NCBI GenBank assembly: GCA_965223415.1 | Contig: OZ245002.1 | Span: forward strand, 4,896,001 to 4,960,000 | From: Myxococcota bacterium | GTDB lineage: Bacteria > Myxococcota_A > UBA9160 > UBA6930 | Direction of reading: 5' to 3' | DNA: 64,000 nucleotides | Shown: one piece after another, positions 12,071 through 35,210 of the stretch | How positions within the stretch are numbered: position 1 is the stretch's first letter | How the letters are laid out: every line of letters begins with the position of its first letter | The notes under the pieces: model-generated | The model's database searches: none | What the model was told of the DNA's origin: nothing | What the model saw: only the letters and a program-made list of their open reading frames with translations | Program-made: the position numbers and the translations under genes

Positions 12071-12081
12071 CCGCGAAAACC

Positions 12082-15028: not shown

Positions 15029-15520
15029 ACGCTCGAAGCGCACGGCATCTCGGTCGTGCTCTCGGGTGGAGCCGTCGTCTCGATCTACTCCGATGCGGAG
15101 TACGTCTCGTACGATCTCGATTTCATTCCCACGGGCCTCGCACGGAAAGTCGACACCGCCATGGAATCCCTCGGCTTCAAGAAGACCCAGCGGCACTGGA
15201 CGCATCCAAAGAGCCGCTACTGAGTCGAGTTCCCACCCGGCCCGGTGGCGATCGGAGACGAAACGATCCGCAGCTTCGCCGAGCGCGAGACGCGAATGGG
15301 GACGCTGCGACTGCTGGCTCCGACCGAGTGCGTCATGGACCGGCTCGCCGGGTACTTCCACGATGCGGACACGCAGTGCCTCGAACAGGCGATCCAGGTC
15401 GCGACGCGGCATCCCGTCGATCTGAAGCGCATCGCGAGGTGGGCGCGCGCTGAGCGGCCTCATGGTGAGGAACGCTACCGGGAGTTCGAGCGGCGGCTAC
15501 GCGAGACCGCGGGTCGGTAG
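15029..15520 (+). pseudogene. 5'-truncated, nonsense-interrupted paralog of the nucleotidyltransferase-like gene at 28244-28795
   Basis: TLEAHGISVVLSGGAVVSIYSDAEYVSYDLDFIP nearly identical to the paralog; TGA at 15221-15223 where the paralog has TGG. Confidence 0.85.
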
Positions 15521-15599
15521 CCGCTCTGACTGGCAGGATTCGAACCCCCGACCCTTGTATCTACTCCACTCACCCGGATCTGGTTCAATAGGGTCAGAA

Positions 15600-15790
15600 C
15601 GGGTTTCGGGGGAGGGTCGCCGTCCCGACCCAGAGGCATGGTCCTCGTACCTGAGAGAGGCGCCCTCGCCCGATCTCGCAAGCTCGAACGGTATCCCGAG
15701 GCAGCGGTCTGCCGCTCGTCCTCGCATGCACAAGGAAGAGCACCGAGGTCGGCACCGAGGCTCCCGACGCTCCCGTTCGAGGAGGAAGAA
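15600..15790 (+). ncRNA. Predicted IS110 bridge RNA (also present in copies 2 and 3)
   Basis: Target loop CCCGACCC (15624-31) and ACCTGAG (15649-55); donor loop ACGGTATC (15688-95) and ACAAG (15730-34); each loop has an inner hairpin; boundaries approximate. Confidence 0.8.
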
Positions 15791-15794
15791 GGGG

Positions 15795-16970
15795 ATGCGC
15801 TTCGTTGGGATCGACATCGCCTCGGAAACGCACGTCGTCGCGATGGTGGGAGAAGACGGGGGCGTGCTGCTGAAGCCGGTCTCGTTCCGGGAGGAGGCGG
15901 CTGGCTACGCACTGCTGTGGGAGAAGCTGGGAGGCCCCGAGGACACGCTCGTAACGCTCGAGGCAACGGGGCACTACTGGAAGAACCTGTTCGCGGCGCT
16001 TGCGGCGAGGGGTTTTGCCGTGGCGTTGATCAACCCGCTGCGCAGTCGCCGGTTCGCACAAGAAGACTTGGAGCGGACGAAGACCGACGCAATCGATGCG
16101 CTCGGCCTGGCTCGCTTCGGAGCACAGAAGCGTCCGAGGGTGACTCGCCTTCCGGACGCGGCGACAGAAGAGCTTCGTGAGCTCGTCCGGCTCCGCGATC
16201 GTCTGGTTCAGGACTTCGGGGACTGCACCCGGCGGCTCCACCGCATGGTCGATCTGGGCTTCCCAGAGCTCAAACGGTACGTGAAGCACCTCGATAGCCA
16301 GCTGTCGACGGGGCTGCTGCGGGAGTACCCCACGGCAAGAGCCTTCCAGGAAGCCTCTGTGGGGCGCGTGGCAAAGCTTCGCTACGACGGTCGTCATCGT
16401 GTAGGCGATGCGCTCGCGAAGCAGCTCGTCGAGGCTGCGCAGAACTCGGTGGGCGCCCATCATGGCCCGGCCTACCAGGTGCAGGTGCGTTACCTGTGCG
16501 AAGACATGGACGTCTTGCGCAAGAGACTCGGCGACATCGACCGCGACATCGCGGATCAGCTATCCGCGCACGAGGTCGGAAGCTTGCTGACGACGATCGA
16601 TGGGATCGGGCCGACGACGGCAGCACGGCTCATCGCGGAGCTCGGTGACCCGGCCGACTTCGCCACGGCCGCAGCCCTCGCCGCCTACGTGGGCGTCGTT
16701 CCAGGCCTAAAGCAGTCGGGCAAGCGCCAAGGCAAACGCGGGAACCTCTCGCCAATCGGTCACGCGCGGCTACGTCGCGCACTGTGGATGCCGACGTTGG
16801 TCGCCGTTCGGAAGAACCCCTGGGTGCGGGCCCACTACGAGCGGCTGCGCGACAACGGCAAGCCCGCAAAGGTCGCGCTGATCGCCTCGACGAGGAAGCT
16901 GCTCATCGCGGTTCACGTCGTGGCGAGGACCCGCAAGCCCTTCGTTCCACAGCTAGAGACCAACCCATGA
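15795..16970 (+). CDS. IS110 recombinase/transposase
   Basis: FVGIDIAS, LEATGHYW, KTDAIDA (DEDD); GVVPGLKQSGK (catalytic Ser region). Confidence 0.95.
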   Translation: MRFVGIDIASETHVVAMVGEDGGVLLKPVSFREEAAGYALLWEKLGGPEDTLVTLEATGHYWKNLFAALAARGFAVALINPLRSRRFAQEDLERTKTDAIDALGLARFGAQKRPRVTRLPDAATEELRELVRLRDRLVQDFGDCTRRLHRMVDLGFPELKRYVKHLDSQLSTGLLREYPTARAFQEASVGRVAKLRYDGRHRVGDALAKQLVEAAQNSVGAHHGPAYQVQVRYLCEDMDVLRKRLGDIDRDIADQLSAHEVGSLLTTIDGIGPTTAARLIAELGDPADFATAAALAAYVGVVPGLKQSGKRQGKRGNLSPIGHARLRRALWMPTLVAVRKNPWVRAHYERLRDNGKPAKVALIASTRKLLIAVHVVARTRKPFVPQLETNP

Positions 16971-17605
16971 ACCGAGAAAACCGGGCCCAGCCCCTTGCTG
17001 AAGATCACGGTATCTCAGGTTCGAAGCCTGATGCTCGATGTCGAGCCACCGGACAGCGCACTTCGAAGAACCGCGTGCATCCAGGCGTCAAGGGTCCGAG
17101 ATCAGGCGCTCCGCGCAACAACCAAGCACGACCAAAGTGCGGAACCAAGCACCGCCAGAACGCGAATTCCTCAGCGAATCCGGCGGCTTCTGGCGGGGCG
17201 GACGGGACTCGAACCTACAACCTCCGGCTGTAAGTCCGCGGAAACGCAGGGGTCCGAAGAGGTGAAGCTTGTATCCCGTTGTATCCCAACCGGGGCACGC
17301 CGGGCCAGGTAGGGCGATGGGGCGGCGGCGGGTAGCCGCCATCCCTCGGGTCCGCGAGCGAGCCCCCTTGCCAGCGCCTCGACGTGAGCTAAATCGGCAT
17401 TGGATCGCACGCAGACATCCCGGGGTCGAGGCCAAGGCGGCGTAGCCCCGGCATGGCTCTTGCGCGCGCCTTGTTGAGGATGTCGCCCGGGTCCGGGTGA
17501 GCTTCGCGTCCCCGCACTGCGGGGGCACGCATCTCCATCTCTTCAGGGCGCCACCGGTCCGCGATCGCGGCGCCCTGTCCCCTCGGCCGGGCGACGTGGG
17601 CCGGC

Positions 17606-18886
17606 TTGCGCGTCTTCTCCGTCTCGCTCTCGCTGCTCGTCGCCGTCGGGCTCTCGCTCGCAGGCAACGGCCTCCTCGGTACGCTGTCGGCACTTCGCCT
17701 CGCCGACGCAGCCCTGCCCGACGAACTGACCGGCCTCGTCCTCGCGGCGTACTTCGCAGGCCTCATGGCCGGCACGCTCGGGCTCGGGAGGACAGTGGCT
17801 CGGGTCGGTCACATCCGGTCCTTCGCGGCCTTCACGGCACTCGCCGTGTTCGCGGCGCTCGCCCAGGGCCTCACCTCGCCGGGCATGCTCTGGCTTCCGC
17901 TTCGGGCGATGACCGGACTGTGCATGGCCGGGACCTACCTGACCGTCGAGTCCTGGCTCCACGCGGAGGCCGGCCCGGAGAGCCGCGGCCGTGTGCTGGC
18001 CGCCTATCTCGTCGCACTCTACCTGGGTACCGGGGCCGGTCAGCTCCTGCTGCCGCTCGCGCCTACCGAGACCCTCGACGCGTTCGCGCTGGCTGCCCTG
18101 CTGACGAGCCTCGCAGTGGTCCCGGTCTGTCTGACGCGCGTTTCTGCACCTCGCCTCGAGCAAGCGGCGACCAGGGCGACCTCCGGGCTCGTGCGCGACG
18201 CGCCCCTCGGGCTCGGCGGGGCCCTCGTCTCGGGATTCGTCGCGGGCACCATCTACGCGAACGCACCGCTCCTTGGGCGCGCGACCGGCATGGAGTCGAC
18301 CGACGTTGCCGGCCTGATGGCCGCCTTCTTCGCGGGCGGCCTCGCCGGACAATGGCCGCTCGGCCGGCTTTCGGACCGCATGGATCGTCGGCTCGTTCTC
18401 TTGGGGGCGATGTTGGGTCTCGCTGGGCTCTGCGCCGCGTTCCTCTTAGTGGCCGCCACGCCTTCCACCATCTGGTGGGCGCTCGCCTTCGCGTTCGGCG
18501 CCCTGGCCTTTGCCCTCTACCCGCTGGCCGTGGCGCACACCATCGACCGGGTGGGTGCGAATCACTCGCTCCCGGCAACGAGTCAGCTCCTGCTGGCTTC
18601 GTCGATCGGCGCGTTCTCGGCACCGGTGCTCGTCGGCGCGGCGAGCCCCTGGCTCGGTGCTTCCGCGTTCCTCCAGCTCGACGCGCTGCTTCTGGTCGGC
18701 TTCAGCCTCGCGGCCTCGCTGCGGATCCTCCGTGTCGATCCGGTCCGCCAGGGTCCGTTCCAGCCCATGGCGAGGACGACACAAGCGGCGCACGAGCTCG
18801 ATCCGCGCCACAGCGGTGACGCTTCATCCCCCGGGCACCAAGCCTCGGTTCCCGCTCGACCCGCGACGGTCGGAGACACCCCATGA
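17606..18886 (+). CDS. MFS transporter (YcaD-like)
   Basis: ~12 TM segments, RVGHIRSFA, ESWL, GRLSDRMDRR. Confidence 0.85.
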   Translation: MRVFSVSLSLLVAVGLSLAGNGLLGTLSALRLADAALPDELTGLVLAAYFAGLMAGTLGLGRTVARVGHIRSFAAFTALAVFAALAQGLTSPGMLWLPLRAMTGLCMAGTYLTVESWLHAEAGPESRGRVLAAYLVALYLGTGAGQLLLPLAPTETLDAFALAALLTSLAVVPVCLTRVSAPRLEQAATRATSGLVRDAPLGLGGALVSGFVAGTIYANAPLLGRATGMESTDVAGLMAAFFAGGLAGQWPLGRLSDRMDRRLVLLGAMLGLAGLCAAFLLVAATPSTIWWALAFAFGALAFALYPLAVAHTIDRVGANHSLPATSQLLLASSIGAFSAPVLVGAASPWLGASAFLQLDALLLVGFSLAASLRILRVDPVRQGPFQPMARTTQAAHELDPRHSGDASSPGHQASVPARPATVGDTP

Positions 18887-18944
18887 AGAACCGCCGGCCC
18901 GGCGACATCCCCCTCAGCCAGATTGCGAGCGCGAGGGCGGCAGC

Positions 18945-20132
18945 GTGAAGCTCGCCATCCTCTCGAGAGAACCGCGGAGCTACAGCACGCGCCGCCTGAA
19001 GGAAGCCGCGCGGGAGCGCGGCCATCGGGCCCGCGTACTCGATCCGACGCTGTTCTCGATCGAAGTCGCGAGCGGGAACCCACACCTCTACTACAGAGGG
19101 CGCGCGCTGGAGCGTTTCGACGCGGTGATCCCGCGTATCGGCGCCTCCATCACCTTCTTCGGAACGGCGGTCGTGCGTCAGTTCGAACAGATGGGCGTGT
19201 TCTGCGTGAACACGTCCACGGCCATCTCGACGTCGCGCGACAAGCTCCGGGCGCTCCAGATCCTGAGCCGGCACCACGTCGGCATCCCGAAGACGTCCTT
19301 CGTTCGCGAGAAGAACGCGATGCTCGAAACGGTGGAGCGGATGAAGGGCCCGCCGGTCATCGTGAAGTTGCTGGAAGGGAGTCAAGGTCTGGGTGTGATC
19401 CTCGCCGAGACGAAGAAGTCCGCGGAGGCGATCGTCGAAACGCTCCAGTTTGCGACGGGCAACAATGTCCTCATCCAGGAATTCGTGGCCGAGTCGCGCG
19501 GCCGCGACATCCGCGCCTTCGTTGTCGACGGCCGGGTCGTCGCGGCCATGCGGAGAACGGCGCAGGAGAGCGAGTTCCGGAGCAACGTCCATCGCGGCGG
19601 GCTGGCCGACGCGGTGGAGCTCGATCCTGTGTACGAGCGCACCGCCATCCACGCTGCCCAGATCCTCGGGCTCCGGGTCGCCGGCGTGGACATGCTCGAG
19701 GGCGCCGATGGCCCGATGCTGATGGAGGTGAACTCGTCGCCCGGCCTCGAGGGCATCGAAGGGGCGACTGGCGTCGACATCGCGGCGACCATTCTCGAGA
19801 TGATCGAAGATCAGGTGCTCTTCCCCGAGATCGACATCCGGCAGCGACTCACACTGCAGAGCGGGTACGGCGTGCTCGAGATCCCGATCGACCGCGGGTC
19901 CGAGCTGTGCGGGCGGACGATTCGCGAGTCCGGTCTGAAGGGTCGGGACGTCCTCGTCCTCCAGATCCAGCGTGGCAGCGTCACGATCCCCAACCCGAAG
20001 ACGAGCCGGGAGATCCTGGCTGGCGACGTGCTGCTCTGTTTCGGCAAGACGTTGACCCTCCGCACCCTGGCGCCGGCACCGCGACGTCGCAATCGGCGTC
20101 GCGGCTCGGCCGTGGGGGCCGCCGATGGCTGA
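18945..20132 (+). CDS. rimK: RimK-family alpha-L-glutamate ligase with C-terminal TrkA-C domain
   Basis: KLAILSR..YSTRRL, DAVIPRIGAS, FRSNVHRGG, EVNSSPGLEGIE. Confidence 0.85.
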   Translation: MKLAILSREPRSYSTRRLKEAARERGHRARVLDPTLFSIEVASGNPHLYYRGRALERFDAVIPRIGASITFFGTAVVRQFEQMGVFCVNTSTAISTSRDKLRALQILSRHHVGIPKTSFVREKNAMLETVERMKGPPVIVKLLEGSQGLGVILAETKKSAEAIVETLQFATGNNVLIQEFVAESRGRDIRAFVVDGRVVAAMRRTAQESEFRSNVHRGGLADAVELDPVYERTAIHAAQILGLRVAGVDMLEGADGPMLMEVNSSPGLEGIEGATGVDIAATILEMIEDQVLFPEIDIRQRLTLQSGYGVLEIPIDRGSELCGRTIRESGLKGRDVLVLQIQRGSVTIPNPKTSREILAGDVLLCFGKTLTLRTLAPAPRRRNRRRGSAVGAADG

Positions 20133-21156
20133 ATGCGTCGAGATCGCGGGAGAGACGATTCGGCGCGGGGAACGTCGGCGAATCCAGATCCCGCTGGCGC
20201 TGCGGCCGACACAGGCCGAGGTCTCGATGTCCGCGGAGGTCATCTGCGGGGCCCGGGACGGGCCGCAGCTCTTCGTGTGCGCCGGCATTCATGGGGACGA
20301 GATCAACGGGGTCGAGATCATCCGGCGCGTGTTGCGCCGCTCGTTCCGGGGGCTTCGGGGGACGCTCCTGGCGGTTCCGATCGTGAACGTCCACGGATTC
20401 GTGGCCCACAGCCGAACCCTGCCCGACCGGAGGGATCTGAACCGCGCCTTCCCGGGCTCGCCCCGAGGATCGCTCGCGGCGCGGCTTGCGCACCAGTTCA
20501 TGGAGAACGTGGTCAAGGCTTCGACGCATGGCATCGATCTCCACACGGCGGCGATCCACCGGGAGAACCTCCCGCAGATCCGCGCCTGCCTCGACGACTC
20601 CGAGACCGAAGAGCTCGCGCGAGCGTTCGGTACGCCCGTTCTGCTCAACTCCGACCTGCGCGACGGGTCGCTCCGCGAGGCGGGACAGGAGCACGGGGTT
20701 CCGGTCCTCGTCTACGAGGGCGGCGAGGCGCTGCGATACAACGAGGCCGCCATCCGCGCCGGCGTGCGCGGGGTGCTTCGCGTGATGCGCCAGCTCAGGA
20801 TGCTCCCGGATGCGGGCGATCGGGGTCGTATCATCGAGCCGTTCGTCGCCCGCAGCAGTGCCTGGGTACGTGCGCCCGAAAGCGGGCTGCTGCGGGTCCG
20901 CGCCAAGCTCGGTGCTCGCGTCAAGAAGGGGTTCGTCCTCGGCGTCATCTCCGACCCGCTGGGCACGGAGGATACGACCGTCAGCGCGAGCCGCGCCGGA
21001 ATCGTGGTGGGCCGCACGCGTCTTCCCGTCGTGAACGAGGGCGATGCACTCTTCCATGTCGCGAGCTTTGACGCGGTGCAATCCGTGGCGCGGGAGGTCG
21101 AGTCCTTCCACGATGAGCTGTTTGATTCCGGCGTTTCGCCCCCCATGGCGGACTGA
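20125..21156 (+). CDS. Succinylglutamate desuccinylase/aspartoacylase family (M14-like)
   Basis: GIHGDEING, DLNRAFPG, IDLHT. Confidence 0.9.
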   Translation: MAECVEIAGETIRRGERRRIQIPLALRPTQAEVSMSAEVICGARDGPQLFVCAGIHGDEINGVEIIRRVLRRSFRGLRGTLLAVPIVNVHGFVAHSRTLPDRRDLNRAFPGSPRGSLAARLAHQFMENVVKASTHGIDLHTAAIHRENLPQIRACLDDSETEELARAFGTPVLLNSDLRDGSLREAGQEHGVPVLVYEGGEALRYNEAAIRAGVRGVLRVMRQLRMLPDAGDRGRIIEPFVARSSAWVRAPESGLLRVRAKLGARVKKGFVLGVISDPLGTEDTTVSASRAGIVVGRTRLPVVNEGDALFHVASFDAVQSVAREVESFHDELFDSGVSPPMAD

Positions 21157-21170
21157 GAAGGAGCAGATCG

Positions 21171-22361
21171 ATGCGCGGTTGGATCCTCGACGGCAAGCCC
21201 GTCCCGGACCCCTCACTCGAAGGCTACGAAGTTCGTCGGTTCCTGGAGGTCGGCGAGAGAGTCGGCATCGATGTCGACCTGGTCACGCCCGAGCAGCTCG
21301 ATCTCGTGGTGACGAGCAGTGGCCGCCCGAGCATCGCGCGGAACGGCAGATCCGTTCCGCTCCCCGACTTCCTGCTTCCGCGCATGGGTGCTTACACGAC
21401 CTACTTCGGGCTTGCCGTGATCCGGCACCTGGAACGCCTGGGAGTGCTGACGGTCAACTCGGCCGAGAGCATCGACACCGTGAAGGACAAGCTCTTCACC
21501 CACCAGATCCTCGCTCAGAACGAGCTGCCGATCGCGCGAACGATGCTCGCCAAACATCCGCTCGACGTCGCCTTCGTGGAGAAAGAGATCGGATTCCCGG
21601 TCGTCGTGAAGACGATCACCGGATCCCAGGGGGCCGGTGTCTTCCTTTGCGAGGATCGTCACCACTTCGAGGATCTGATGGAGCTCGTTCTCGCCGCGCG
21701 CAGCAACGCGAACCTGATCCTCCAGGAGTACGTGGCCTCGAGTCGAGGGCGCGATCTCCGCGTGTTCACGGTCGGCGGCCGCGCCGTGGCCGCGATGGAA
21801 CGTTCTTCGCAGGACGGCTCGTTCAAGGCGAATGTCTCGAGGGGCGGACGGGCCACCGCCTACTCGTTGGACGCCGAGAGCGAGTGGCTGGCGCTCGAAG
21901 TCACGCGCTTGCTGGGTCTCGACGTGGCGGGGATCGATCTGCTCTTCGACGGCGACCACTACCTCGTCTGCGAGGCGAACTCGTCGCCCGGTTTCCGCGG
22001 TCTCGAGTCGTGCTGCGCCGTCAGCATCCCGCACGAGATCCTGCGCTTTGCTGCGCTCCGCCTCGGTCGCCACGACGTCGCCGACCGGCTCGAGGTGGAT
22101 CTCGCGGAGTCGTTCGGCGACCCGCCGGTCGGCGTTGCGAGCACATGGTCCAACGCGCACTGTGCGGTGAGCGCTAGCGGCACCAGCGACGCAGAGCGCG
22201 CGCTCGCCGAGGTGGGCGCGGTCAAGGGCCAGGGTGGCTGCATGGCGATCGATGGGCGGGGTCGCATCACGACGGTCCTGAACAGCCCGCAGATGGTGCG
22301 AGCATCGCTCGTCGAGGGCGAGCCCATGCGTCTCGGGATCTGGACGGATGACGATGCGTGA
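21171..22361 (+). CDS. Second RimK-family ATP-grasp ligase with C-terminal extension
   Basis: LPRMG, GSQGAGV, FKANVSRGG, CEANSSPGF. Confidence 0.85.
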   Translation: MRGWILDGKPVPDPSLEGYEVRRFLEVGERVGIDVDLVTPEQLDLVVTSSGRPSIARNGRSVPLPDFLLPRMGAYTTYFGLAVIRHLERLGVLTVNSAESIDTVKDKLFTHQILAQNELPIARTMLAKHPLDVAFVEKEIGFPVVVKTITGSQGAGVFLCEDRHHFEDLMELVLAARSNANLILQEYVASSRGRDLRVFTVGGRAVAAMERSSQDGSFKANVSRGGRATAYSLDAESEWLALEVTRLLGLDVAGIDLLFDGDHYLVCEANSSPGFRGLESCCAVSIPHEILRFAALRLGRHDVADRLEVDLAESFGDPPVGVASTWSNAHCAVSASGTSDAERALAEVGAVKGQGGCMAIDGRGRITTVLNSPQMVRASLVEGEPMRLGIWTDDDA

Positions 22362-22765
22362 CCACGACCTGCCTGGGCTGCCGCCCGGACTCACCCGCCG
22401 AACCCGACTTGGAGGCCGCCGTGGAAATCGCAAGAACTGGTGAGATCGTCCACATCATCGAGCGGCGCCTGTTCGTCGGTGATGTCCGCCGCCACTTCGT
22501 CGGAGAGGTCGAGGCGTGCGCCGACCGTGCGCTTCGGGTTCGTGGTTATCTCTTCGTCTATGACTCCTCCGAGAGCGCGTTCACGAAGAAGCCCGAGCTC
22601 CGCACTCGAATCTTCCCGCTCGACAATCGGCTGATCCTGAGCCTTTTGCCGCAGGGGACACACCTGGAACAGGTCCGATACGACCACGACGACGAGGGCA
22701 ACCTGTCCCTGGTCGACGGAGCCGACCTCGAGCTCGACATCAGCGAGTTCAGCTCCCGGGAGTAA
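22358..22765 (+). CDS. Hypothetical protein
   Basis: GTGA overlap with the upstream gene; plausible coding composition. Confidence 0.65.
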   Translation: MTTTCLGCRPDSPAEPDLEAAVEIARTGEIVHIIERRLFVGDVRRHFVGEVEACADRALRVRGYLFVYDSSESAFTKKPELRTRIFPLDNRLILSLLPQGTHLEQVRYDHDDEGNLSLVDGADLELDISEFSSRE

Positions 22766-22847: not shown

Positions 22848-23140
22848 ACCCCCAGGTTCGAAGCCTGGTGCTCAACCTCGCTCCGCGCGGACACGAGCGC
22901 GCGTGTCGGCGAAGCTGGAACCCGCTTGGTTCCCGGATGTATCCCGCGCGCGTCGCGGCTCGACAACCGCTGCTCGCGCGTGGACTTACGCGCGAAGCGT
23001 GCGGGTTCCGAGAAACCCGAAAAGCTGAATGAAATCAGCTTGATGGCGGGGCGGACGGGACTCGAACCTACAACCTCCGGCTGTAACCTCCCGGAAACAC
23101 AGGGGTCCGAAGAGATGAAGCTTGTATCCCGTTGTATCCC
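22848..23140 (-). repeat. Junction repeat J2
   Basis: acccccaggttcgaagcctggtgctc (22848-73); tRNA-Asp-like half 23044-23086; ttgtatcccgttgtatccc 23122-23140. Confidence 0.85.
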
Positions 23141-24190: not shown

Positions 24191-24241
24191 GACCTCCGAT
24201 CGCGCTCCGACATCTGATAGCCAATTGGCTATTATTCGAGC

Positions 24242-26887: not shown

Positions 26888-27133
26888 ATGAAGACGACAG
26901 TCGAGATTCCGGATCCGCTGGCCGACGAAGCCAAGGCCGTCGCGCAGCGCGACAAGACCACGCTTCGCGAGCTCATCGAGACGGGACTTCGACTGGTGCT
27001 TCGAGAGCGACGGCGCAAGACCCGCTTTCGCCTTTGCGACGCCAGCTTCCGAGGACGCGGGCTTCAGCCGGAGTACCAGGACGAAGACTGGCAGCGGATT
27101 CGAAACGCTGCCTACAAGGGCCGCGGCGGTTGA
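26888..27133 (+). CDS. VapB-like RHH antitoxin (DUF2191-like)
   Basis: MKTTVEIPDPL..AKAVA..TTLRELIETGLR. Confidence 0.85.
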   Translation: MKTTVEIPDPLADEAKAVAQRDKTTLRELIETGLRLVLRERRRKTRFRLCDASFRGRGLQPEYQDEDWQRIRNAAYKGRGG

Positions 27134-27564
27134 TCGCCGTCGACACGAATCTCCTCGTCTACGCCCACCGCGCAGAATCCGATTGGCACGGTCGAGCTGC
27201 GGCATGCGTTCGCGAGCTCGCAGACGCGAGAGCGCCGTGGGCCATCCCGTGGCCATGCATCCACGAGTTCCTCGCCATCGCGACCCATCCCAGGATCTGG
27301 GACCCGCCCTCGCCCACGGAGGCGGCGCTCGACCAGGTCGAAGCCTGGATCGAATCGCCCGGGCTGGTCTTGCTCGCGGAGGGCGCGGATCACTGGAGCG
27401 AGCTTCGCGGCCTGGTCGAGGCCAGTCGCATCGTGGGGCCGCGGGTCCACGACGCGCGCATCGCAGCTCTTTGCCGCGCGCATGGCGTACGCGAACTATG
27501 GACAGCGGACCGCGACTTCAGCCGGTTCTCGAGCCTCGTCACGGTGAACCCGCTGACTCGCTAG
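27130..27564 (+). CDS. vapC: VapC/PIN-domain toxin
   Basis: IAVDTNLLVYA, HDARIAAL, TADRDF. Confidence 0.9.
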   Translation: MIAVDTNLLVYAHRAESDWHGRAAACVRELADARAPWAIPWPCIHEFLAIATHPRIWDPPSPTEAALDQVEAWIESPGLVLLAEGADHWSELRGLVEASRIVGPRVHDARIAALCRAHGVRELWTADRDFSRFSSLVTVNPLTR

Positions 27565-27589: not shown

Positions 27590-27796
27590 CGATCCCCAAC
27601 CCTCGGGGTTGGAGCCCAACCAGGCGCTCGTGGCGACAACCGAGCACGACCAAAGCGCGGAACCAAGCGCCGCCAGAACGCGAATTCCTCAGCGAATCCG
27701 GCGGCTCGTGGCGGGTCGGACGGGACTCGAACCTACAACCCCCGGCCGTAACCCCTCGGAAACGCAAGGGTTCGTAGGACTGCAGCTTGTATCCCG
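27590..27796 (-). repeat. Junction repeat J5 (degenerate Arg half, conserved spacer and Asp-like half)
   Basis: caggcgctc..acaaccgagcacgaccaaagcgcggaaccaag..; tggcgggtcggacgggactcgaacctacaacc 27709-51. Confidence 0.85.
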
Positions 27797-27840
27797 CCAT
27801 CGCCCCGCCCTCCCTGGGCCTTGCGCCCGGGCTTGGGCCA

Positions 27841-27914: not shown

Positions 27915-28247
27915 ATGCTCGAAGGCATCTTCGGAAACGCCAGCGCGGAAAAGGTCCTCCTCTATCTGGAGCAGTACGAGGAAGGGTACGCGACGGCGAT
28001 GGCTCGAACTTTCGACGACCTCTCGCTGAACATGGCCCAGCGGCAGCTCGAGCGGTTCGAGCGGGCCGGTGCGCTTGTGAGCTCACTCCGAGGCCGAACC
28101 CGCCTCTACACATGGAATCCTCGCTACCCGTTTCGCCGGGAGCTGCGGGCCCTGCTTCGCAAGGCCCTCGACCAACTGCCCGCCTCCGAGCGGAAGCGCT
28201 ACTTCACCGAGCGCAGACGGCCGCGCCGTGCGGGCAAGCCACTGTGA
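27915..28247 (+). CDS. Winged-HTH protein (putative antitoxin/regulator)
   Basis: EKVLLYL..YATAMARTF..AQRQLERFERAG..GRTRLY. Confidence 0.8.
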   Translation: MLEGIFGNASAEKVLLYLEQYEEGYATAMARTFDDLSLNMAQRQLERFERAGALVSSLRGRTRLYTWNPRYPFRRELRALLRKALDQLPASERKRYFTERRRPRRAGKPL

Positions 28248-28795
28248 ACGCGCAGCATCGGATCGACGAGGACACCTCCCTCGAGGAGGTCGCCGCTCTC
28301 GTCTGCACGACCCTCGAGGCGCACGGCATCTCGGTCGTGCTCTCCGGCGGCGCCGTCGTCTCGATCTACTCCGACGCCGAATACGTCTCCTACGACCTGG
28401 ACTTCATCCCGATCGGACTCGCTCGGAAAGTCGATGGCGCCATGGAGTCACTCGGCTTCGAGAAGCGGCAGCGCCACTGGACGCATCACCGAAGCCGGTA
28501 CTGGGTCGAGTTCCCTCCCGGCCCCGTCGCCATCGGGGAAGAGACGATTCGCAGCTTTGCGGAACGCGAGACCCGGGCAGGGACCCTGCGCCTCCTCGCT
28601 CCGACCGAGTGCGTGATGGATCGGCTGGCCTGGTATTTCCATGACGCGGACACGCAGTGCCTCGAGCAGGCGGTTCGTGTTGCGACGCTCCAGCCGGTGG
28701 ACCTGAAGCGCATCGAACGGTGGGCGCGCGGCGAAGGGCCTCGTGGCGAGGAGCGATTTCGGGAGTTCGAGCGGAGGCTGCACGAGAAGAAATGA
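28244..28795 (+). CDS. Nucleotidyltransferase-fold protein (putative toxin)
   Basis: VLSGGAVVSIYS..SYDLDF; GTGA overlap with the wHTH gene. Confidence 0.75.
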   Translation: MNAQHRIDEDTSLEEVAALVCTTLEAHGISVVLSGGAVVSIYSDAEYVSYDLDFIPIGLARKVDGAMESLGFEKRQRHWTHHRSRYWVEFPPGPVAIGEETIRSFAERETRAGTLRLLAPTECVMDRLAWYFHDADTQCLEQAVRVATLQPVDLKRIERWARGEGPRGEERFREFERRLHEKK

Positions 28796-28816: not shown

Positions 28817-29047
28817 GGTGCAGGGGGGTGCAATAGGGTGCAGGGAGGTGTCGTTTCGACGGCACCGAACCGCGGGACGGCACCATACAGAGCGCGAACG
28901 GGTAGGTTCCGGACCTGCCCGAGCGGGATTCGAACCCCCGACCCCCAGGTTCGAAGCCTGAACGGACCCGTAGGAAATCCAAATGGTTGCGCGATTCCGA
29001 GCGGGAATGAACGGGAATACGCGGGAATACGGGCACAAAATGGTCAC
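28817..29047 (-). repeat. Junction repeat J6 (GGTG x4, tRNA-Arg(UCG) half, GGGAAT x3)
   Basis: gggattcgaacccccgacccccaggttcgaagcctg 28925-60; flanking repeats phased at 10 bp. Confidence 0.85.
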
Positions 29048-29209: not shown

Positions 29210-29674
29210 CTATCCGTCCCGGGACTTCGAACGCACTTGCTCGAAGGCCTTCTTGATATGTGGCGAACTGTCCGCGCGAACCTGCGGAACGCCTTCCTGC
29301 AGTTGTATCCAGCCCGGGAGATGGTCCTCGACCCCGAAATAGAACGAAGGGGACTCGATCTCGAGCGGCTCATCCAGCGTGCCGATAAAGATGCTCTCGA
29401 GGTTGCTCATGTCCCCGGTCGCATAGCTGTGCCCGATGTGCGTCCCACACTCCGGACAGAAGTGCCTCTCGAGAATTGGTGAGGTCATGAACCGGGCCGG
29501 TTCCCCCTTCGTGAACCGGAAGCTGTCGAGATCGAAGAAGGCGCCCGTTCCTGCAGCCATCCCCGTCCAACGCTGGCACATCCGGCAATGGCACATGCCG
29601 GTCGTGACGGGCGATTCCGTCGATTCATATCGGATCGCCCCACAGTAACAGCCCCCGGAGAATGTTCTGGGCAT
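29210..29674 (-). CDS. GFA/CENP-V family Zn protein
   Basis: GGCYCGAIRY, CHCRMCQR, FCPECG. Confidence 0.9.
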   Translation of the reverse strand: MPRTFSGGCYCGAIRYESTESPVTTGMCHCRMCQRWTGMAAGTGAFFDLDSFRFTKGEPARFMTSPILERHFCPECGTHIGHSYATGDMSNLESIFIGTLDEPLEIESPSFYFGVEDHLPGWIQLQEGVPQVRADSSPHIKKAFEQVRSKSRDG

Positions 29675-29862
29675 GGCTCTCCCCGATGCGACGTCTATTC
29701 GTAAGTCCTCGTCCATTGTCGCCTCTGCACCGGCAGCCTGTCCACCGGGGTTGCTTCTCACGCACTGATGGTTCGGACGAGGCCTTCCTCGGCGTGCGGA
29801 GATGAGTCACCGCGGGCGGGTGCCGAATCCCTTCGGACCTCGGTGACGGGTTGGTCATCGCT

Positions 29863-30522
29863 TCAGGAGCTTGGTCCCTCCTCGTAGTCGAGCGCATCGC
29901 GCGCCCGCTCGGCGATCGCTTCGTACACCGAGCGCGCCCAGGCCTCCTTCTCGTCATCGAGCTCGATGGTCTCCCAGTCTGAGACCGCCGCCTGGGCCCA
30001 CTCCCCCCACTCGCCGAGCGCGGTCGCCAAACGCGCGACCAGCTCGGCCACGAGCGCCGCCGTGTGGATCCGCTCGGGCACCGCGAAACCGTCTTCCAGC
30101 AGCGCCTCGGTCCCCGCGACGGCCTGGTGCAGCCACTCGGACCGACGTTGCCGCCCGCGCGCGAGCGTCTCGCGAAGCTGTTCGATGTCGCTGGCGGTCG
30201 CGTAGGCAATCTTGAGCGCGAACTCGAGTTCGAACGAGGCGGGGGGCGCCGGAACCGAGAGCCAGTGCGCGAGAGCGCGACGGCCGGCCGGCGTGATGCG
30301 ATACACGGTGCGCTCGCGTGCTCCCGAGCGCTCCTTGCGGCTCTTCGCGTAGCCCGCTGCCTCGAGGTCCTTGGGCGCCTGATAGATCTTGCTCTCGGCT
30401 CGCGGCCAGACGAAGCGGAGATTGCTGCTGGTCTTCATGTGGCGCGCGAGCTCGTAGGCGGACCAGGGGCGCGCGGCGAGCAGGCCGAGGATCGCGTAGG
30501 CGTTCGGACTCAGGTCGGGCAT
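29863..30522 (-). CDS. PadR-family transcriptional regulator
   Basis: YAILGLLA.RPWSAYEL, SKIYQ..LE..GY, YRITPAGRRAL. Confidence 0.9.
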   Translation of the reverse strand: MPDLSPNAYAILGLLAARPWSAYELARHMKTSSNLRFVWPRAESKIYQAPKDLEAAGYAKSRKERSGARERTVYRITPAGRRALAHWLSVPAPPASFELEFALKIAYATASDIEQLRETLARGRQRRSEWLHQAVAGTEALLEDGFAVPERIHTAALVAELVARLATALGEWGEWAQAAVSDWETIELDDEKEAWARSVYEAIAERARDALDYEEGPSS

Positions 30523-30532
30523 CGCAGAAATA

Positions 30533-30575
30533 TACTCCCTTAGGGAGTAATCTGTGTATACTCCCAATGGAAGCA
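30533..30575. promoter_or_regulatory. Palindromic operator(s) in a divergent promoter
   Basis: TACTCCCT-T-AGGGAGTA perfect palindrome at 30533-49 plus an imperfect second copy. Confidence 0.7.
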
Positions 30576-30606
30576 GATCTTCCAGCCCTCCGAGGAGGCG
30601 ACTGCG

Positions 30607-32070
30607 ATGACGAGCCCCGAGTCGATGATCCCGCCCGCCGTGGGCGATTATGAGGTCGACCGCCAGCGCCATTGCGCAGCGATGGGCGCGGGTCTTGGCG
30701 AGGAGGTCGCCCGGCTCGGTGCCGGCCCGGTCGAGATCGCCCGGATCCGGGACGAGCGCCTGCGCGGCCTGCTGGCCCACGCCCGCACTCACTCGCCGTG
30801 GCATCGCGAGCGCCTCGCCGGGCTCGAGGTCGACCGTATCTCTGCGGCCGACGTGAGCGCGCTGCCCTCCATGACGAAGGCCGACCTCATGGAGTACTGG
30901 GACGAGATCGTCTGCGACCCGCAGCTCGACCTGAAGCAGGTCGAGGCCCACATCGAACGCATCGCACACGACGGTCCGTCTTACCTGCACGACCGGTACC
31001 ACGCGCTCGCGACGGGCGGGTCGACGGGCAGGCGGGCCGTCGTCGTCTGGGACTTCGACGGCTTCAGGATCACCGGAACACGCTCGCCGGCGTGGAGCCT
31101 GTCGTGTAGCGTGCACCTGGGTCTGCCGACATCGTTGCCGATCGTCGCCTGCATCGTCGCGTCCAAGGGCGCGACACACCTCGGCGGCGCGGTGAACGCC
31201 TGCTTCTCCAACCCCGAGAGGGCAACCTACGTCTCGGTCGCCGCGTCCCAGCCGATGGAAGAGATCGTCCGGATCCTCGAGGAGGCGCAGCCGGTCGTCC
31301 TCAGCGGCTACGCGTCGACGCTGCAGCAGCTCGCGGAGCTGAAGCTCGCCGGTCGCCTCGATATCGCGCCGGCCCAGGTTGTCCAGGGAGGCGAGCCCTT
31401 CCTTCCCGAGGCGCGCGCCGCGGTCGACGCCGGCTTCGGATGTCCCGTACGCGACCAATGGGGAGCGTCGGAGATCGGCTGGGGCGGCTCGTCGTTCCCC
31501 GGGACGGAAGGCATCGTGCTCTGCGAGGATCTCGTGACCGTCGAGCCTGTCGATGGCGACGGGCGCCCTGTCGGCCTCGGTGAGCCGGCCGCGAAGCTGT
31601 TCGTCACCAACCTCGTCAACCGCGTGCTGCCGGTCATCCGCTACGAGATCAGCGACGAAGCGACGATGGTCGCCCCCGATCCCGACTGCCCCTGGACGGG
31701 GCATCGCCTCCTCGCGATTGAGGGCCGACGGGACGACGTGTTCACGTACGGCGATCGCACGGTCCATCCCCACGCGTTTCGCAGCGTGCTCACGACCCAC
31801 GGAGCCATCGCCGAGTACCAGGTGCGACAGACCGAGCACGGAGCCGATGTCGACGTCGTCGGAGCCGCACCCGGCGCGTGTGATGCGCTCGAAGGGTCGA
31901 TCGCGGGCGCGCTCGCCCGCGCGGGCCTCGACTCGCCCCTCGTCCGCGTCACGCCGGTCGAGTCGATCCCACGCCAGCCGAATAGCCACAAGCTGAGGCG
32001 CTTCGTTCCGCTCTCCCGACCGAACGCCTCCGGGGCGCCAGACAGTCGTTCTCGGAGAGACTGCGGATGA
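30607..32070 (+). CDS. Phenylacetate-CoA ligase family (adenylate-forming) protein
   Basis: ATGGSTG P-loop, WGASE, IRYEISD, GRRDD. Confidence 0.85.
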   Translation: MTSPESMIPPAVGDYEVDRQRHCAAMGAGLGEEVARLGAGPVEIARIRDERLRGLLAHARTHSPWHRERLAGLEVDRISAADVSALPSMTKADLMEYWDEIVCDPQLDLKQVEAHIERIAHDGPSYLHDRYHALATGGSTGRRAVVVWDFDGFRITGTRSPAWSLSCSVHLGLPTSLPIVACIVASKGATHLGGAVNACFSNPERATYVSVAASQPMEEIVRILEEAQPVVLSGYASTLQQLAELKLAGRLDIAPAQVVQGGEPFLPEARAAVDAGFGCPVRDQWGASEIGWGGSSFPGTEGIVLCEDLVTVEPVDGDGRPVGLGEPAAKLFVTNLVNRVLPVIRYEISDEATMVAPDPDCPWTGHRLLAIEGRRDDVFTYGDRTVHPHAFRSVLTTHGAIAEYQVRQTEHGADVDVVGAAPGACDALEGSIAGALARAGLDSPLVRVTPVESIPRQPNSHKLRRFVPLSRPNASGAPDSRSRRDCG

Positions 32071-32987
32071 CGGACACGACCACAGCCCTCGCCGAGCACC
32101 TCTTCTACCCCGTCTTCGTGTACGGGCGGGGCATCCTCATCTTCTGGCTCTGCGTTGCGTTCGGCGCCGACAACCCGCAGCTGTTGCCACTGCTGATGCT
32201 GGCCTTCCTGATCGGCAGCCTCGCGATCCTGGCCGTTGCAGAGCGCCTGCTTCCCTACCGGACCGACTGGCTCGAATCCGGCGACCCACAGATCTGGAAC
32301 GACGTGGGCCACTCGTTCGTCTACCTGGTGGTGGGGACGCGTCTCGGCCAGATCCTCGTGCTCTCCACCGCCATCGCGCTCGTGGGCAGCGCCGAGGCGC
32401 GGCTCTGGACGGGCGTGTGGCCCGACGCCTGGCCGCTCGGCGCCCAGATCGCGCTCGTGATCGTCCTAGGCGACGTGCTCGAGTACGGGTACCACCGGCT
32501 CTCGCATACCCTCTCGTGGATGTGGCCGATCCACGTGCTGCACCACACGCCGGACCGCATCCACGCGCTCAAGACGTACCGGCACCACTGGCTCTACTCG
32601 CTGCTACGAAGCCTCTTCGTGGGCCTGCCCCTCATGCTCGCGGGCGCACCACTGGGCATGCTGGTCTGGCCCGCAGTGGCGATCTCCATCGTCGGGTCGA
32701 TCTCACACGCCAACGTCCGTCTTAGGATGAGCCCCTTCTGGTACCGCGTGCTCAACACGCCGGAGCTCCACCGTATCCACCACTCCGTCGATCCCGCGCA
32801 CCACAACGCCAACTACTGCTTTGTGCTGCCGATCTGGGACCTCCTCTTCGGCACCTTCGTCGCACCCGAGCAGACGACGGTCCGTACTACCGGTCTCACC
32901 GACGATCCCGTTCCCAACGGCTTCCTGCGCCAGCTCGCCCTGCCACTGACCCTTCGACGCGAGAATACCTCCGAGATAGATCACTAG
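32067..32987 (+). CDS. Sterol desaturase/fatty acid hydroxylase family
   Basis: YHRLSH, HVLHH, HRIHH His boxes. Confidence 0.9.
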   Translation: MTDTTTALAEHLFYPVFVYGRGILIFWLCVAFGADNPQLLPLLMLAFLIGSLAILAVAERLLPYRTDWLESGDPQIWNDVGHSFVYLVVGTRLGQILVLSTAIALVGSAEARLWTGVWPDAWPLGAQIALVIVLGDVLEYGYHRLSHTLSWMWPIHVLHHTPDRIHALKTYRHHWLYSLLRSLFVGLPLMLAGAPLGMLVWPAVAISIVGSISHANVRLRMSPFWYRVLNTPELHRIHHSVDPAHHNANYCFVLPIWDLLFGTFVAPEQTTVRTTGLTDDPVPNGFLRQLALPLTLRRENTSEIDH

Positions 32988-33079
32988 GGCGGCGTGGGGT
33001 CGTACTCCATGAGGTGGCGCGTGCGTGCTCGGTGTGTGCGGACTCACTGGCACGCCGGGAGGGATTCGAACCCCCGACC

Positions 33080-34541
33080 CTTGTATCTACTCCACTCACC
33101 CGGATCTGGTTCAATAGGGTCAGAACGGGTTTCGGGGGAGGGTCGCCGTCCCGACCCAGAGGCATGGTCCTCGTACCTGAGAGAGGCGCCCTCGCCCGAT
33201 CTCGCAAGCTCGAACGGTATCCCGAGGCAGCGGTCTGCCGCTCGTCCTCGCATGCACAAGGAAGAGCACCGAGGTCGGCACCGAGGCTCCCGACGCTCCC
33301 GTTCGAGGAGGAAGAAGGGGATGCGCTTCGTTGGGATCGACATCGCCTCGGAAACGCACGTCGTCGCGATGGTGGGAGAAGACGGGGGCGTGCTGCTGAA
33401 GCCGGTCTCGTTCCGGGAGGAGGCGGCTGGCTACGCACTGCTGTGGGAGAAGCTGGGAGGCCCCGAGGACACGCTCGTAACGCTCGAGGCAACGGGGCAC
33501 TACTGGAAGAACCTGTTCGCGGCGCTTGCGGCGAGGGGTTTTGCCGTGGCGTTGATCAACCCGCTGCGCAGTCGCCGGTTCGCACAAGAAGACTTGGAGC
33601 GGACGAAGACCGACGCAATCGATGCGCTCGGCCTGGCTCGCTTCGGAGCACAGAAGCGTCCGAGGGTGACTCGCCTTCCGGACGCGGCGACAGAAGAGCT
33701 TCGTGAGCTCGTCCGGCTCCGCGATCGTCTGGTTCAGGACTTCGGGGACTGCACCCGGCGGCTCCACCGCATGGTCGATCTGGGCTTCCCAGAGCTCAAA
33801 CGGTACGTGAAGCACCTCGATAGCCAGCTGTCGACGGGGCTGCTGCGGGAGTACCCCACGGCAAGAGCCTTCCAGGAAGCCTCTGTGGGGCGCGTGGCAA
33901 AGCTTCGCTACGACGGTCGTCATCGTGTAGGCGATGCGCTCGCGAAGCAGCTCGTCGAGGCTGCGCAGAACTCGGTGGGCGCCCATCATGGCCCGGCCTA
34001 CCAGGTGCAGGTGCGTTACCTGTGCGAAGACATGGACGTCTTGCGCAAGAGACTCGGCGACATCGACCGCGACATCGCGGATCAGCTATCCGCGCACGAG
34101 GTCGGAAGCTTGCTGACGACGATCGATGGGATCGGGCCGACGACGGCAGCACGGCTCATCGCGGAGCTCGGTGACCCGGCCGACTTCGCCACGGCCGCAG
34201 CCCTCGCCGCCTACGTGGGCGTCGTTCCAGGCCTAAAGCAGTCGGGCAAGCGCCAAGGCAAACGCGGGAACCTCTCGCCAATCGGTCACGCGCGGCTACG
34301 TCGCGCACTGTGGATGCCGACGTTGGTCGCCGTTCGGAAGAACCCCTGGGTGCGGGCCCACTACGAGCGGCTGCGCGACAACGGCAAGCCCGCAAAGGTC
34401 GCGCTGATCGCCTCGACGAGGAAGCTGCTCATCGCGGTTCACGTCGTGGCGAGGACCCGCAAGCCCTTCGTTCCACAGCTAGAGACCAACCCATGAACCG
34501 AGAAAACCGGGCCCAGCCCCTTGCTGAAGATCACGGTATCT
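33080..34541 (+). mobile_element. IS110-family element copy 3
   Basis: Same sequence as copy 1; CT cores at 33080-81 and 34540-41. Confidence 0.95.
33321..34496 (+). CDS. IS110 recombinase/transposase
   Basis: Protein identical to copy 1. Confidence 0.95.
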   Translation: MRFVGIDIASETHVVAMVGEDGGVLLKPVSFREEAAGYALLWEKLGGPEDTLVTLEATGHYWKNLFAALAARGFAVALINPLRSRRFAQEDLERTKTDAIDALGLARFGAQKRPRVTRLPDAATEELRELVRLRDRLVQDFGDCTRRLHRMVDLGFPELKRYVKHLDSQLSTGLLREYPTARAFQEASVGRVAKLRYDGRHRVGDALAKQLVEAAQNSVGAHHGPAYQVQVRYLCEDMDVLRKRLGDIDRDIADQLSAHEVGSLLTTIDGIGPTTAARLIAELGDPADFATAAALAAYVGVVPGLKQSGKRQGKRGNLSPIGHARLRRALWMPTLVAVRKNPWVRAHYERLRDNGKPAKVALIASTRKLLIAVHVVARTRKPFVPQLETNP

Positions 34542-34688
34542 CAGGTTCGAAGCCTGGGGCTAAATCGAGACGGAGCAGGTAGTTGGCCGGCTGCGATCGG
34601 GAATGCTCGGGAATCTACGGGAATGCGGGCACGATCTGGTCACAACCCGAGTGAGATCGATCTGGCGCACAGGATGGGCCAACGATCT

Positions 34689-35144
34689 TCAGTGCTTGTG
34701 TTGATGCTCGTGAGAATCCTCTTCTCCGAAGGTCGCGACAAGTCCGCTGATCACGTCAGCGCGGTCATCATCCGAAAGCCGTGCGCCCGGATGTAGCGGT
34801 AGATAGAACCAAGGTGGCATCTCGCCGTCCCGGACGAGCTCCCCGGCCTTGTCTCCGTGGTTCTCCTTCTCTCCCCACTCGGAGACGTTGAAGTGCGAAC
34901 GGCCTTCTTCGACGTCCCATTGGACTAGCCAGGAGGACGGCGCTACGAGGCTGTACCACGGCCACTCAGTCTCGTTGCTGTGGCAATCCTTGCACGCTCG
35001 AAAGAAGAGCTCTCGCGTGCGAGGCCGGTCCCAAGCTGGCTCTCGAATGATCTCCGGATTCGATCGATCGCGCCCGTACGGAACGACCTGAACGACCAGC
35101 AGGAGACCGGCGATCAGCGAGAGGGAGAATCGGATCTTCCGCAT
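34689..35144 (-). CDS. Heme-binding domain (Haem_bd) cytochrome c
   Basis: ACKDCHSNET.WPWY, GEMPPWFY. Confidence 0.9.
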   Translation of the reverse strand: MRKIRFSLSLIAGLLLVVQVVPYGRDRSNPEIIREPAWDRPRTRELFFRACKDCHSNETEWPWYSLVAPSSWLVQWDVEEGRSHFNVSEWGEKENHGDKAGELVRDGEMPPWFYLPLHPGARLSDDDRADVISGLVATFGEEDSHEHQHKH

Positions 35145-35210
35145 GGATGCTCCTCGGTCCGACGATAGAGGACCGAACGCCACTCCGGCAGTGACCGGTG
35201 GCCTCAGGGG

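Follow-up and report, generated by a model that had tools for sequence, protein, structure and literature searches.

Small integrase-less gene blocks between tRNA-derived att-type repeats in a Myxococcota contig: probable tandem accretion at tRNA attachment sites

How do small gene blocks without an integrase of their own come to lie one behind another, bounded by pieces of transfer RNA (tRNA) genes? The question is raised by 64 kb of contig OZ245002.1 from a Myxococcota bacterium (the window; coordinates here are window positions), in which seven co-oriented junctions, J1 to J7, were found within 15.5-34.6 kb, combining phased arm repeats with a core that resembles tRNA-Arg(UCG), a tRNA-Asp 3′ end or both. 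A preliminary description had proposed an integron-like array whose cassettes are shuffled in trans at tRNA-derived attachment (att) sites. The reading that we consider the probable one is that the array arose by tandem accretion of small islets at tRNA att sites, that the integrase is now gone and that the units resemble cis-mobilizable elements (CIMEs).

The junction repeats are far more frequent than shuffled sequence would predict. The 34-nucleotide (nt) Arg-type core or its halves occur at six places, where three pattern searches returned 2, 6 and 6 matches against 0.00, 0.02 and 0.05 expected. A 25-nt Asp-type 3′ end was found four times (17191, 23044, 24094 and 27709; 0.00 expected); this pattern search missed a fifth, degenerate copy at about 26727-26750 in J4, which was recognized from reading the sequence. 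The GGTTCGARTC T-loop motif occurs nine times in the window, in each case on the minus strand and within 15.5-33.1 kb (0.46 expected), which bears out the seven co-oriented junctions described before. As we read it, the minus strand of the Arg piece would comprise an anticodon stem-loop with UCG, the variable region and the T arm. The T arm alone of this core matched real tRNAs, and the loci fetched for comparison held no tRNA-Arg(UCG). The Asp part of J3 is 92% identical over 38 nt to positions 40-77 of an intact tRNA-Asp at a related locus, L067. With this match and the arm-type repeats present, the tRNA-derived, att-type nature proposed for the junctions holds. Their parts are as follows.

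15537-15554 with 17017-17030; 22854-22867; 23918-23951; 25088-25105 with 26568-26581; 28927-28960; 33063-33080 with 34543-34556, minus strand: Arg-type core pieces
15530-17291, minus strand: J1, Arg core split by copy 1 of an IS110-family insertion sequence (IS), canonical spacer, Asp 3′ end 17191-17233, two arm repeats GGGATACAA up to 17290
22848-23143, minus strand: J2, Arg anticodon-arm piece cut short (22848-22880), 130-nt spacer of unrelated sequence, flank with a terminator-type hairpin, Asp 3′ end 23044, two arm repeats
23918-24194, minus strand: J3, the most complete, with uninterrupted Arg core 23918-23951, canonical spacer, Asp 3′ end 24094, two arm repeats
25088-26820, minus strand: J4, Arg core interrupted by IS110 copy 2, then the canonical spacer, a terminator-type hairpin (26706-26723), a degenerate Asp 3′ end at ~26727-26750, two arm repeats CTTGAGCAC at ~26800-26820
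27590-27809, minus strand: J5, without an Arg piece; spacer truncated (from 27621), Asp 3′ end 27709 with 1 mismatch, one arm repeat
28927-29047, minus strand: J6, uninterrupted Arg core 28927-28960, three CGGGAAT arm repeats in 11-nt phase, no Asp part
33041-34643, minus strand: J7, Arg core interrupted by IS110 copy 3; next on the minus strand come a tRNA-like T-stem, acceptor strand and CCA (33041-33062); three CGGGAAT repeats at ~34590-34630

The uniform architecture previously given to J1-J5 does not hold. The complete layout of Arg core, spacer, Asp core and two GGGATACAA repeats is present in J1 and J3 only; in J2 the Arg piece is cut short and the spacer unrelated, in J4 the Asp end is degenerate and the arms are different, and in J5 the Arg piece is missing. 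J1, J4 and J7 are not junctions of a long type: they measure 1.6-1.75 kb because an ordinary junction has been split by a 1460-bp IS110 element. J6 and J7 carry the Arg core only, with CGGGAAT as a third arm type, repeated three times in an 11-nt phase. At least three att types can be told apart (the Asp core with either GGGATACAA or CTTGAGCAC arms, and the Arg core with CGGGAAT arms), and around the Asp core a hairpin flank is combined with GGGATACAA in J2 and with CTTGAGCAC in J4, while the canonical flank is combined with GGGATACAA in J1, J3 and J5. The joining of differing P-arm and P′-flank types at the same cores is expected if the cores are crossover points.

Further evidence comes from other genomes. 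A collection of genome contigs was scanned with a 19-nt Asp-type repeat pattern, which is also a genuine T-arm segment of tRNAs from Melainabacteria and other lineages; at least 118 stretches matched, flanking DNA was taken for 80 loci, and three stretches among the matches listed (L067, L095 and L010) carry the repeat. L095, outside the 80 loci, is known from 619 nt of its 213-kb contig. In L067 an intact tRNA-Asp(GTC) at 4447-4523 precedes an acyltransferase block and an arm-repeat and Asp-core module; next come an epimerase/Maf block and another module, this one with the canonical flank, before ordinary metabolic genes set in. Its modules are 86-93% identical to the window copies, and across genomes the ~190-bp module is 82-93% identical. 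The preliminary description had suggested a search for the module in relatives, and the outcome favors it: the same Asp-type module bounds different cargo in other genomes, and in L067 an intact tRNA-Asp stands at the head of the array. The 14 filtered open reading frames (ORFs) inside the L067 array, all of them scanned, include no integrase; for the locus as a whole the scan covered 31 of 56 filtered ORFs, with short ORFs nested in flanking genes and those past ~17.6 kb excluded. In L067 and L095 the Asp module comes without an Arg core. L095 and L010 share more homology beyond the arm repeat and may therefore carry the same neighboring element.

The repeats themselves bear an attP-type signature. 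Just 5′ of the T loop the GGGATACAA-arm copies read GTTGTAGG (once GTTGTAGC) where the intact gene reads GTTGCGGG (alignment A1), and from the T loop to CCA they equal the intact gene bar single-base differences; L010 departs from it at the CCA end, and the degenerate J4 copy does so throughout the stretch from 5′ of the T loop to CCA. Since the substitutions are absent from the intact gene, the repeats are element-derived, from the attP side, rather than copies of the host gene. Crossover would lie within the last ~25 nt, and the pattern is the one expected of attP-derived copies. About 85 nt after CCA are common to J1, J3, J5, L067c and L095. The hairpin flank seen in J2 and J4 is similar to what follows the intact L067 tRNA-Asp and may therefore be a host-side flank. 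On the arm side, homology ends at the first GGGATACAA repeat in J1, J2, J3 and L067c, and the cargo differs past it.

Some observations on these loci stand apart. In the middle junction of L067 (6713-6790), additional GGGATACAAG / GGGATATGG repeats occur downstream of the Asp core, which places arm-type repeats on both sides of the core. By their bin labels, apparently from one study, L095 belongs to Myxococcota and L010 to Thermoleophilia/'Acidobacteriota_20'; L067 is labelled Spirochaetales yet has 71% G+C, and this label may be unreliable. A shared chromosomal locus of L010 and L067 was considered and dropped, the acyl-CoA dehydrogenases beside the terminal repeat being only 27% identical.

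Could the junctions instead be a dispersed, non-autonomous repeat of tRNA origin, similar to a miniature inverted-repeat transposable element (MITE) or a repetitive extragenic palindrome (REP), which is scattered between genes genome-wide, serves mainly as an IS110 landing pad and resembles cassette boundaries by coincidence? All the repeats are intergenic, three IS copies lie within the repeat, and IS110/IS1111 elements typically target repeats such as REP or attC (described in PMC11208160 and PMC11187229). However, all window copies lie in one 19-kb stretch and none in the other ~45 kb, which within the window speaks against the MITE-like scatter named earlier as a possible refutation. The L067 copies follow directly on an intact tRNA-Asp and carry attP-type substitutions. 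The modules have phased arm-type repeats instead of terminal inverted repeats, and neither terminal inverted repeats nor target duplications were seen at the junction modules in the window. On the evidence of the window and of L067, we consider this explanation improbable.

An assembly artefact or segmental duplication, in which a collapsed or chimeric assembly or the recent tandem duplication of one unit produced the array, deserves hardly any credence. The three IS110 copies are 99.8-100% identical in self-comparison and could mislead a short-read assembler, but misassembly is unlikely because the junction modules are mutually only 77-93% identical, with unique flanks and different cargo at each. 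The sole paralogous cargo pair is 81% identical, and the module also occurs in independent assemblies.

Between the junctions lie the following cargo blocks.

15021-15520, plus strand: nucleotidyltransferase (NTase)-like pseudogene remnant, paralogue of 28244-28795, 5′-truncated, in-frame TGA at 15221-15223
17497-22765, plus strand: major facilitator superfamily (MFS) transporter, RimK-type ATP-grasp, desuccinylase/aspartoacylase-type, second RimK-type and hypothetical proteins (Pfam; NCBIfam for MFS)
23232-23875, plus strand: MazE/AbrB-type antitoxin and Doc toxin (Pfam Fic/DOC 7.2e-22, MazE_antitoxin; NCBIfam DOC_P1 6.5e-17)
24242-25076, plus strand: XRE-family helix-turn-helix (HTH) protein and NTase-like protein at 24561-25076 (Pfam HTH_3 4.1e-15; DUF6036 3.1e-4, below gathering score)
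26876-27564, plus strand: VapB-like antitoxin and VapC (PIN) toxin (NCBIfam VapC 7e-25; Pfam PIN 3e-11; VapB_antitoxin 2.2e-3, weak)
27915-28795, plus strand: winged-HTH protein and NTase-like protein at 28244-28795 (weak Pfam matches only: HTH_20 0.009, DUF2204 0.11)
29213-32987, both strands: GFA (minus), PadR (minus), CoA-ligase-like (plus) and fatty-acid hydroxylase/OlsE-like (plus) proteins (Pfam, NCBIfam)
34692-35183, minus strand: haem-binding-domain protein, the last block before the second IS21-family element (Pfam Haem_bd 1.6e-33)

The cargo is integrase-less. The Pfam scan covered 113 ORFs of >=60 amino acids (aa) between 6000 and 42700 that passed a filter on third-position G+C (GC3), with ORFs failing it excluded (for scale, 155 ORFs of >=60 aa lie within 13-37 kb), and no match to tyrosine or serine recombinase families was found in the cargo among these 113. 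By Pfam and NCBIfam, the scanned ORFs of the cargo units encode neither integrase nor transfer functions while both att sites are kept, and the L067 array is alike in this. The earlier statement that no cassette encodes a recombinase accordingly stands for the cargo itself, but an IS110 recombinase lies in three junctions and a truncated integrase at the edge. Earlier cargo labels were confirmed for Doc, VapC, XRE, MFS, both RimK proteins, the desuccinylase, GFA, PadR and the haem protein; the slot called a desaturase is a fatty-acid hydroxylase, and both NTase labels are weak.

These two NTase assignments are leads from weak matches (DUF6036 3e-4; DUF2204 0.11) and from Atlas neighbors, which for the 27915-28795 block include DUF2204, DUF6036 and AbiEii clusters (a lead only). 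The ORF at 28244-28795 starts in overlap with the upstream stop as GTGA. The 15021-15520 remnant is 81.1% identical over 486 nt to 28303-28787, is cut by an IS21-family element and has TGA where the paralogue has TGG. Each of the two 81%-identical NTase-like cassettes is followed by an Arg core, beyond which they differ, with spacer and Asp module in J1 and CGGGAAT arms in J6. Units measure 0.6-5.3 kb, and four are single toxin-antitoxin-type pairs. The largest block (17606-22762) forms a coherent MFS - RimK - desuccinylase/aspartoacylase - RimK - hypothetical set, whose composition suggests the making and trimming of a poly-amino-acid tail or small peptide.

At the edges of the array are a third tRNA fragment, what is left of an integrase, and two IS21-family elements.

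12082-12135, minus strand: tRNA-Arg(CCU)-like 3′ part from anticodon loop to CCA, with the T-loop motif at 12097 (the anticodon being our own reading)
12186-12751, plus strand: truncated P4-type tyrosine integrase, N-terminal arm-binding part only (Pfam Arm-DNA-bind_3 3.7e-15), cut by IS21
12752-15004, minus strand: IS21-family element, with IstA 13662-14945 (Pfam rve and Mu-transpos_C_2) and an IstB-sized ORF 12842-13981 outside the profile scan
35615-38117, minus strand: second IS21-family element, unrelated to the first, with IstB 35690-36712, IstA 36438-38060 (Pfam) and terminal inverted repeats; the right boundary of the array

The tRNA-Arg(CCU)-like fragment is unique in the window (1 match, 0 expected) and lies 50 nt from the start of the integrase stub. 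Just past it, at about 12020-12070, are two direct repeats CATTCCGGG[C/G]ACATGGTT. Pfam found no catalytic domain in the stub (12186-12751), which gave weak tblastn matches to phage integrases. The left IS21, with 31-nt terminal inverted repeats (12752-12782 / 14974-15004, 84% complementary), cuts both the stub and the first cargo gene and so parts the stub from the array. Directly left of the tRNA fragment, 11097-12120 holds pieces of another IS (HTH_28 and an rve_3 integrase core), so that the left edge must have been rearranged more than once.

From these features a history by accretion can be proposed. Islets would have been inserted one after another, by site-specific recombination of a tyrosine integrase, into the 3′ segments of tRNA-Asp and tRNA-Arg(UCG), and each insertion would have produced a recombinant att site in which the arm repeats of the element, a tRNA-derived core and the next flank are combined. 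Since the units are now without an integrase, they would be either fixed scars or movable only through an integrase acting in trans, as CIMEs are; the prevalence of toxin-antitoxin-type pairs in the cargo would favor retention. Five Arg cores span the insertion point of IS110, which would later have entered three of them by way of its own bridge/seek RNA matching the core, and IS21 elements would have cut both edges, parting the array from its integrase and from any intact tRNA gene. Catalysis by an integrase, the order of these events and any present-day mobility of the units are what we infer.

Several points weigh against accretion at tRNA genes. No intact tRNA gene lies in the 64-kb window, so the array is not anchored here. 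The 3′ continuation of the Arg core differs in each copy and resembles a tRNA acceptor end only in J7, which implies that most Arg-type sites could not have restored a tRNA gene. In J1, J3 and J4 the Asp core, spacer and Arg core form one unit of ~290 bp, whose joint travel is unaccounted for. The host-type hairpin flank occurs twice, in J2 and J4, which a single simple series of accretions does not predict. Packing is tight, with 12-132 nt between a cargo stop and the core that follows (at J5, 57 nt up to the truncated spacer), ~50-300 nt from an arm repeat to the nearest cargo end and sharp module edges, so that the units look more like dedicated cassettes than like randomly decayed islands. 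The comparative base is also thin, with three informative loci among at least 118 matched. The compact units, the Arg sites without a tRNA-like 3′ end, the doubled host-type flank and the fused ~290-bp unit keep open the reading closest to the preliminary description, a dedicated integron-like platform.

On such a platform, integrase-less mini-cassettes that were never larger elements would carry a full attP-like module (arms, tRNA-derived core and P′ flank), and a P4-type integrase supplied in trans, chromosomal or element-encoded, would excise them as circles and re-insert them at a tRNA gene or an internal core. We regard this as possible, if doubtful. Compact packing in all seven units speaks for it, as do the sharp arm-side boundary common to copies in four genomes with unrelated cargo beyond, the conservation of the ~190-bp module at 82-93%, the two-block integrase-less array directly at an intact tRNA-Asp in L067, the mixing of arm and flank types around one core and the position of related cassettes beside different partners. 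On the other hand, no cognate intact integrase was found in the window (113 scanned ORFs) or in 20 kb of L067, att-bounded units without integrase are equally explained as leftovers, in which deletion tends to spare toxin-antitoxin genes, and the concept overlaps with known cis-mobilizable elements (as discussed in PMC3146451). A broader proposal, which we put forward tentatively and think rather unlikely to hold, is that some Myxococcota-like bacteria may possess a portable attP-like module of ~190-290 bp (phased arms, a tRNA-Asp core and, here, an added tRNA-Arg core) that is inserted, excised and reordered by a P4-type integrase in trans, and on whose core an RNA-guided IS110 would have specialized, as some IS1111-family elements have on attC.

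Accretion at tRNA att sites, the reading that we prefer, has precedents. The CIMEs of Streptococcus thermophilus are reportedly an example of accreted islands that are mobilizable in cis, and tRNA sublocations have been surveyed by Williams. In print, islands in tandem bounded by partial tRNA or transfer-messenger RNA genes and including integrase-less members are described in an article (PMC3146451) and a preprint (10.1101/2020.12.28.424599), so the earlier remark that this is not recognizable as a described architecture is not supported. In Dehalococcoides, 15 of the tandem ssrA islands lack integration modules and are discussed as possible cis-mobilizable elements mobilized by accretion (PMC3146451). 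As portrayed there, they share with the present array unit boundaries formed by co-oriented direct repeats that derive from the 3′ part of a small-RNA gene, extra conserved sequence adjoining the repeat, several units without an integration module and cargo that varies by unit and genome. They differ in that the units here are much smaller (0.6-5.3 kb), two tRNA cores are interleaved and, in three junctions, fused into a ~290-bp module, and no intact target gene lies in the window, although L067 has one; the Dehalococcoides integrase is, by the same account, a serine recombinase, whereas a tyrosine integrase of P4 type is likely here.

Prochlorococcus tycheposons, as described in 10.1101/2020.12.28.424599, likewise integrate at tRNA genes, have some neighbors parted by a partial tRNA alone and include degenerated remnants and extra partial tRNAs scattered in the island. 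They are, however, defined there by their own integrase and usually a replication module, neither of which is present here among the 113 scanned ORFs, and they belong to Prochlorococcus as opposed to a Myxococcota-like high-GC genome. With integrons the array shares compact, mostly co-oriented cassettes that are rich in toxin-antitoxin genes and each bounded by a recombination-site-like repeat, and also the invasion of the recombination site by an IS with a DEDD transposase, as described for ISKpn4 and ISPst6 on attC (PMC11187229). Unlike integrons, it has no IntI (no recombinase catalytic domain in the 113 ORFs), no attI and no attC; its repeats consist of pieces of tRNA accompanied by arm-type repeats, a combination diagnostic of classical lambda/P4-type att sites. 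Its cassettes also differ in having their own regulators and, therefore, probably their own promoters. When six junction pieces were folded as single strands in search of attC-like palindromes, z ranged from +0.11 to -0.72, with one at -3.10, and only a 7-9-bp stem was found.

The IS110-family unit offers an instructive extra, an RNA-guided IS with predicted guides matching a tRNA-derived att core. All three copies are inserted at one and the same base of the Arg core, with CT at both sides.

15556-17013, in J1: body of copy 1, CT at 15554-15555 and 17014-17015
25107-26564, in J4: body of copy 2
33082-34539, in J7: body of copy 3

The protein has DEDD_Tnp_IS110 and Transposase_20 domains (Pfam 5.8e-36 and 1.8e-27) and matches the NCBIfam entry 'IS110 family RNA-guided transposase' at 1.5e-75, above cut-off. 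In the IS110 group, the left non-coding end is described as encoding an RNA with four guides, of which the left-target guide equals the top strand of the left flank and core and the right-target guide is complementary to the core and right flank, an analogous pair serving the IS ends (PMC11208160, PMC11187229); their order is given in PMC11187229, where the IS1111-family elements ISKpn4 and ISPst6 are also described as targeting attC sites. In the 5′ non-coding left end here (240 nt), guide-like segments occur in IS110-group order, with a small hairpin separating each pair.

33150-33157, 8 nt: predicted left-target guide
33175-33181, 7 nt: predicted right-target guide
33214-33221, 8 nt: predicted left-donor guide
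33256-33260, 5 nt: predicted right-donor guide

In 5000 dinucleotide shuffles single guides arose 99, 61 and 32 times, the ordered pair of left- and right-target guides 0 times and all three long guides 0 times. The second core base is mismatched in both left guides, and the empty Arg sites read CC where CT flanks the IS. We predict, from order and matches together, that the left end encodes a bridge/seek RNA with guides to the tRNA-derived att core; the match of the predicted guides to the Arg core would explain why three of the five Arg cores spanning the insertion point are occupied. Rfam gave no matching family for the left end, with one chance-level match, its minimum-free-energy fold is not distinctive (z = -1.09), and an unordered k-mer comparison, not significant alone, was superseded by the ordered-guide test. 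With the published elements (as described in PMC11208160 and PMC11187229) it shares the DEDD and Transposase_20 domains, a long 5′ non-coding end, the lack of inverted repeats, CT at both sides, insertion at one base of a repeated target and guides in IS110-group order. It differs in that its target is a tRNA-derived att core and its RNA is a prediction from the sequence. The Arg core (23918-23951, 28927-28960) is itself an imperfect inverted repeat, with ~10-nt arms around an 11-12-nt center that holds the IS110 insertion point, because TTCGAA occurs in both the anticodon loop (with UCG) and the T loop.

If the units are no more than scars, the locus is a clear, if unremarkable, case of island accretion at tRNA sites, set apart from known tandem tRNA islands by its unusually small units and by three later invasions of an RNA-guided IS. 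If they can still be moved in trans, it would mean that capturing and reshuffling single-operon cassettes in the manner of an integron, here mainly toxin-antitoxin and defence-type genes, is within the reach of classical integrase/att systems. In both cases the junction module can serve as a marker in the search for the autonomous parent element in related genomes. Against a phage set, J3 gave a single 35-nt match, to a Microbacterium phage, and nothing more; J3, J6 and the whole 20-kb array gave zero matches to a plasmid set. The array sequence therefore corresponds to no plasmid or myxophage att region known from these sets.

The window as a whole ranges from 61 to 77% G+C in 1-kb windows, and ~11-42 kb is an IS-rich, lower-GC stretch of about 61-70%. 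ARAGORN found no tRNA genes in the 64-kb window except one odd call inside vapBC, a 'tRNA-???' at 27085-27169 (minus strand) with a two-base anticodon, which was rejected as a false positive within the vapB/vapC coding region. Rfam gave no match at gathering score in the window and none at E <= 1 for 11-43 kb. A promoter and terminator scan showed no excess over shuffles, the only noteworthy signal being the hairpin after the J4 Asp end. To the right of the array, a 57-nt direct repeat unrelated to the tRNA-type repeats (38226-38281 / 38696-38752, 84% identity) lies on either side of a small ORF (38283-38663) whose product, judged by the DNA, looks hydrophobic. At 39583-41456 on the minus strand, a candidate defence pair in PADLOC is matched by an AAA_21 ATPase of 399 aa (HEC-01A, 3e-94) and a DUF4276 protein of 219 aa (HEC-01B, 2e-32), and this HEC-01-like pair sits in the IS-rich low-GC stretch of the array.

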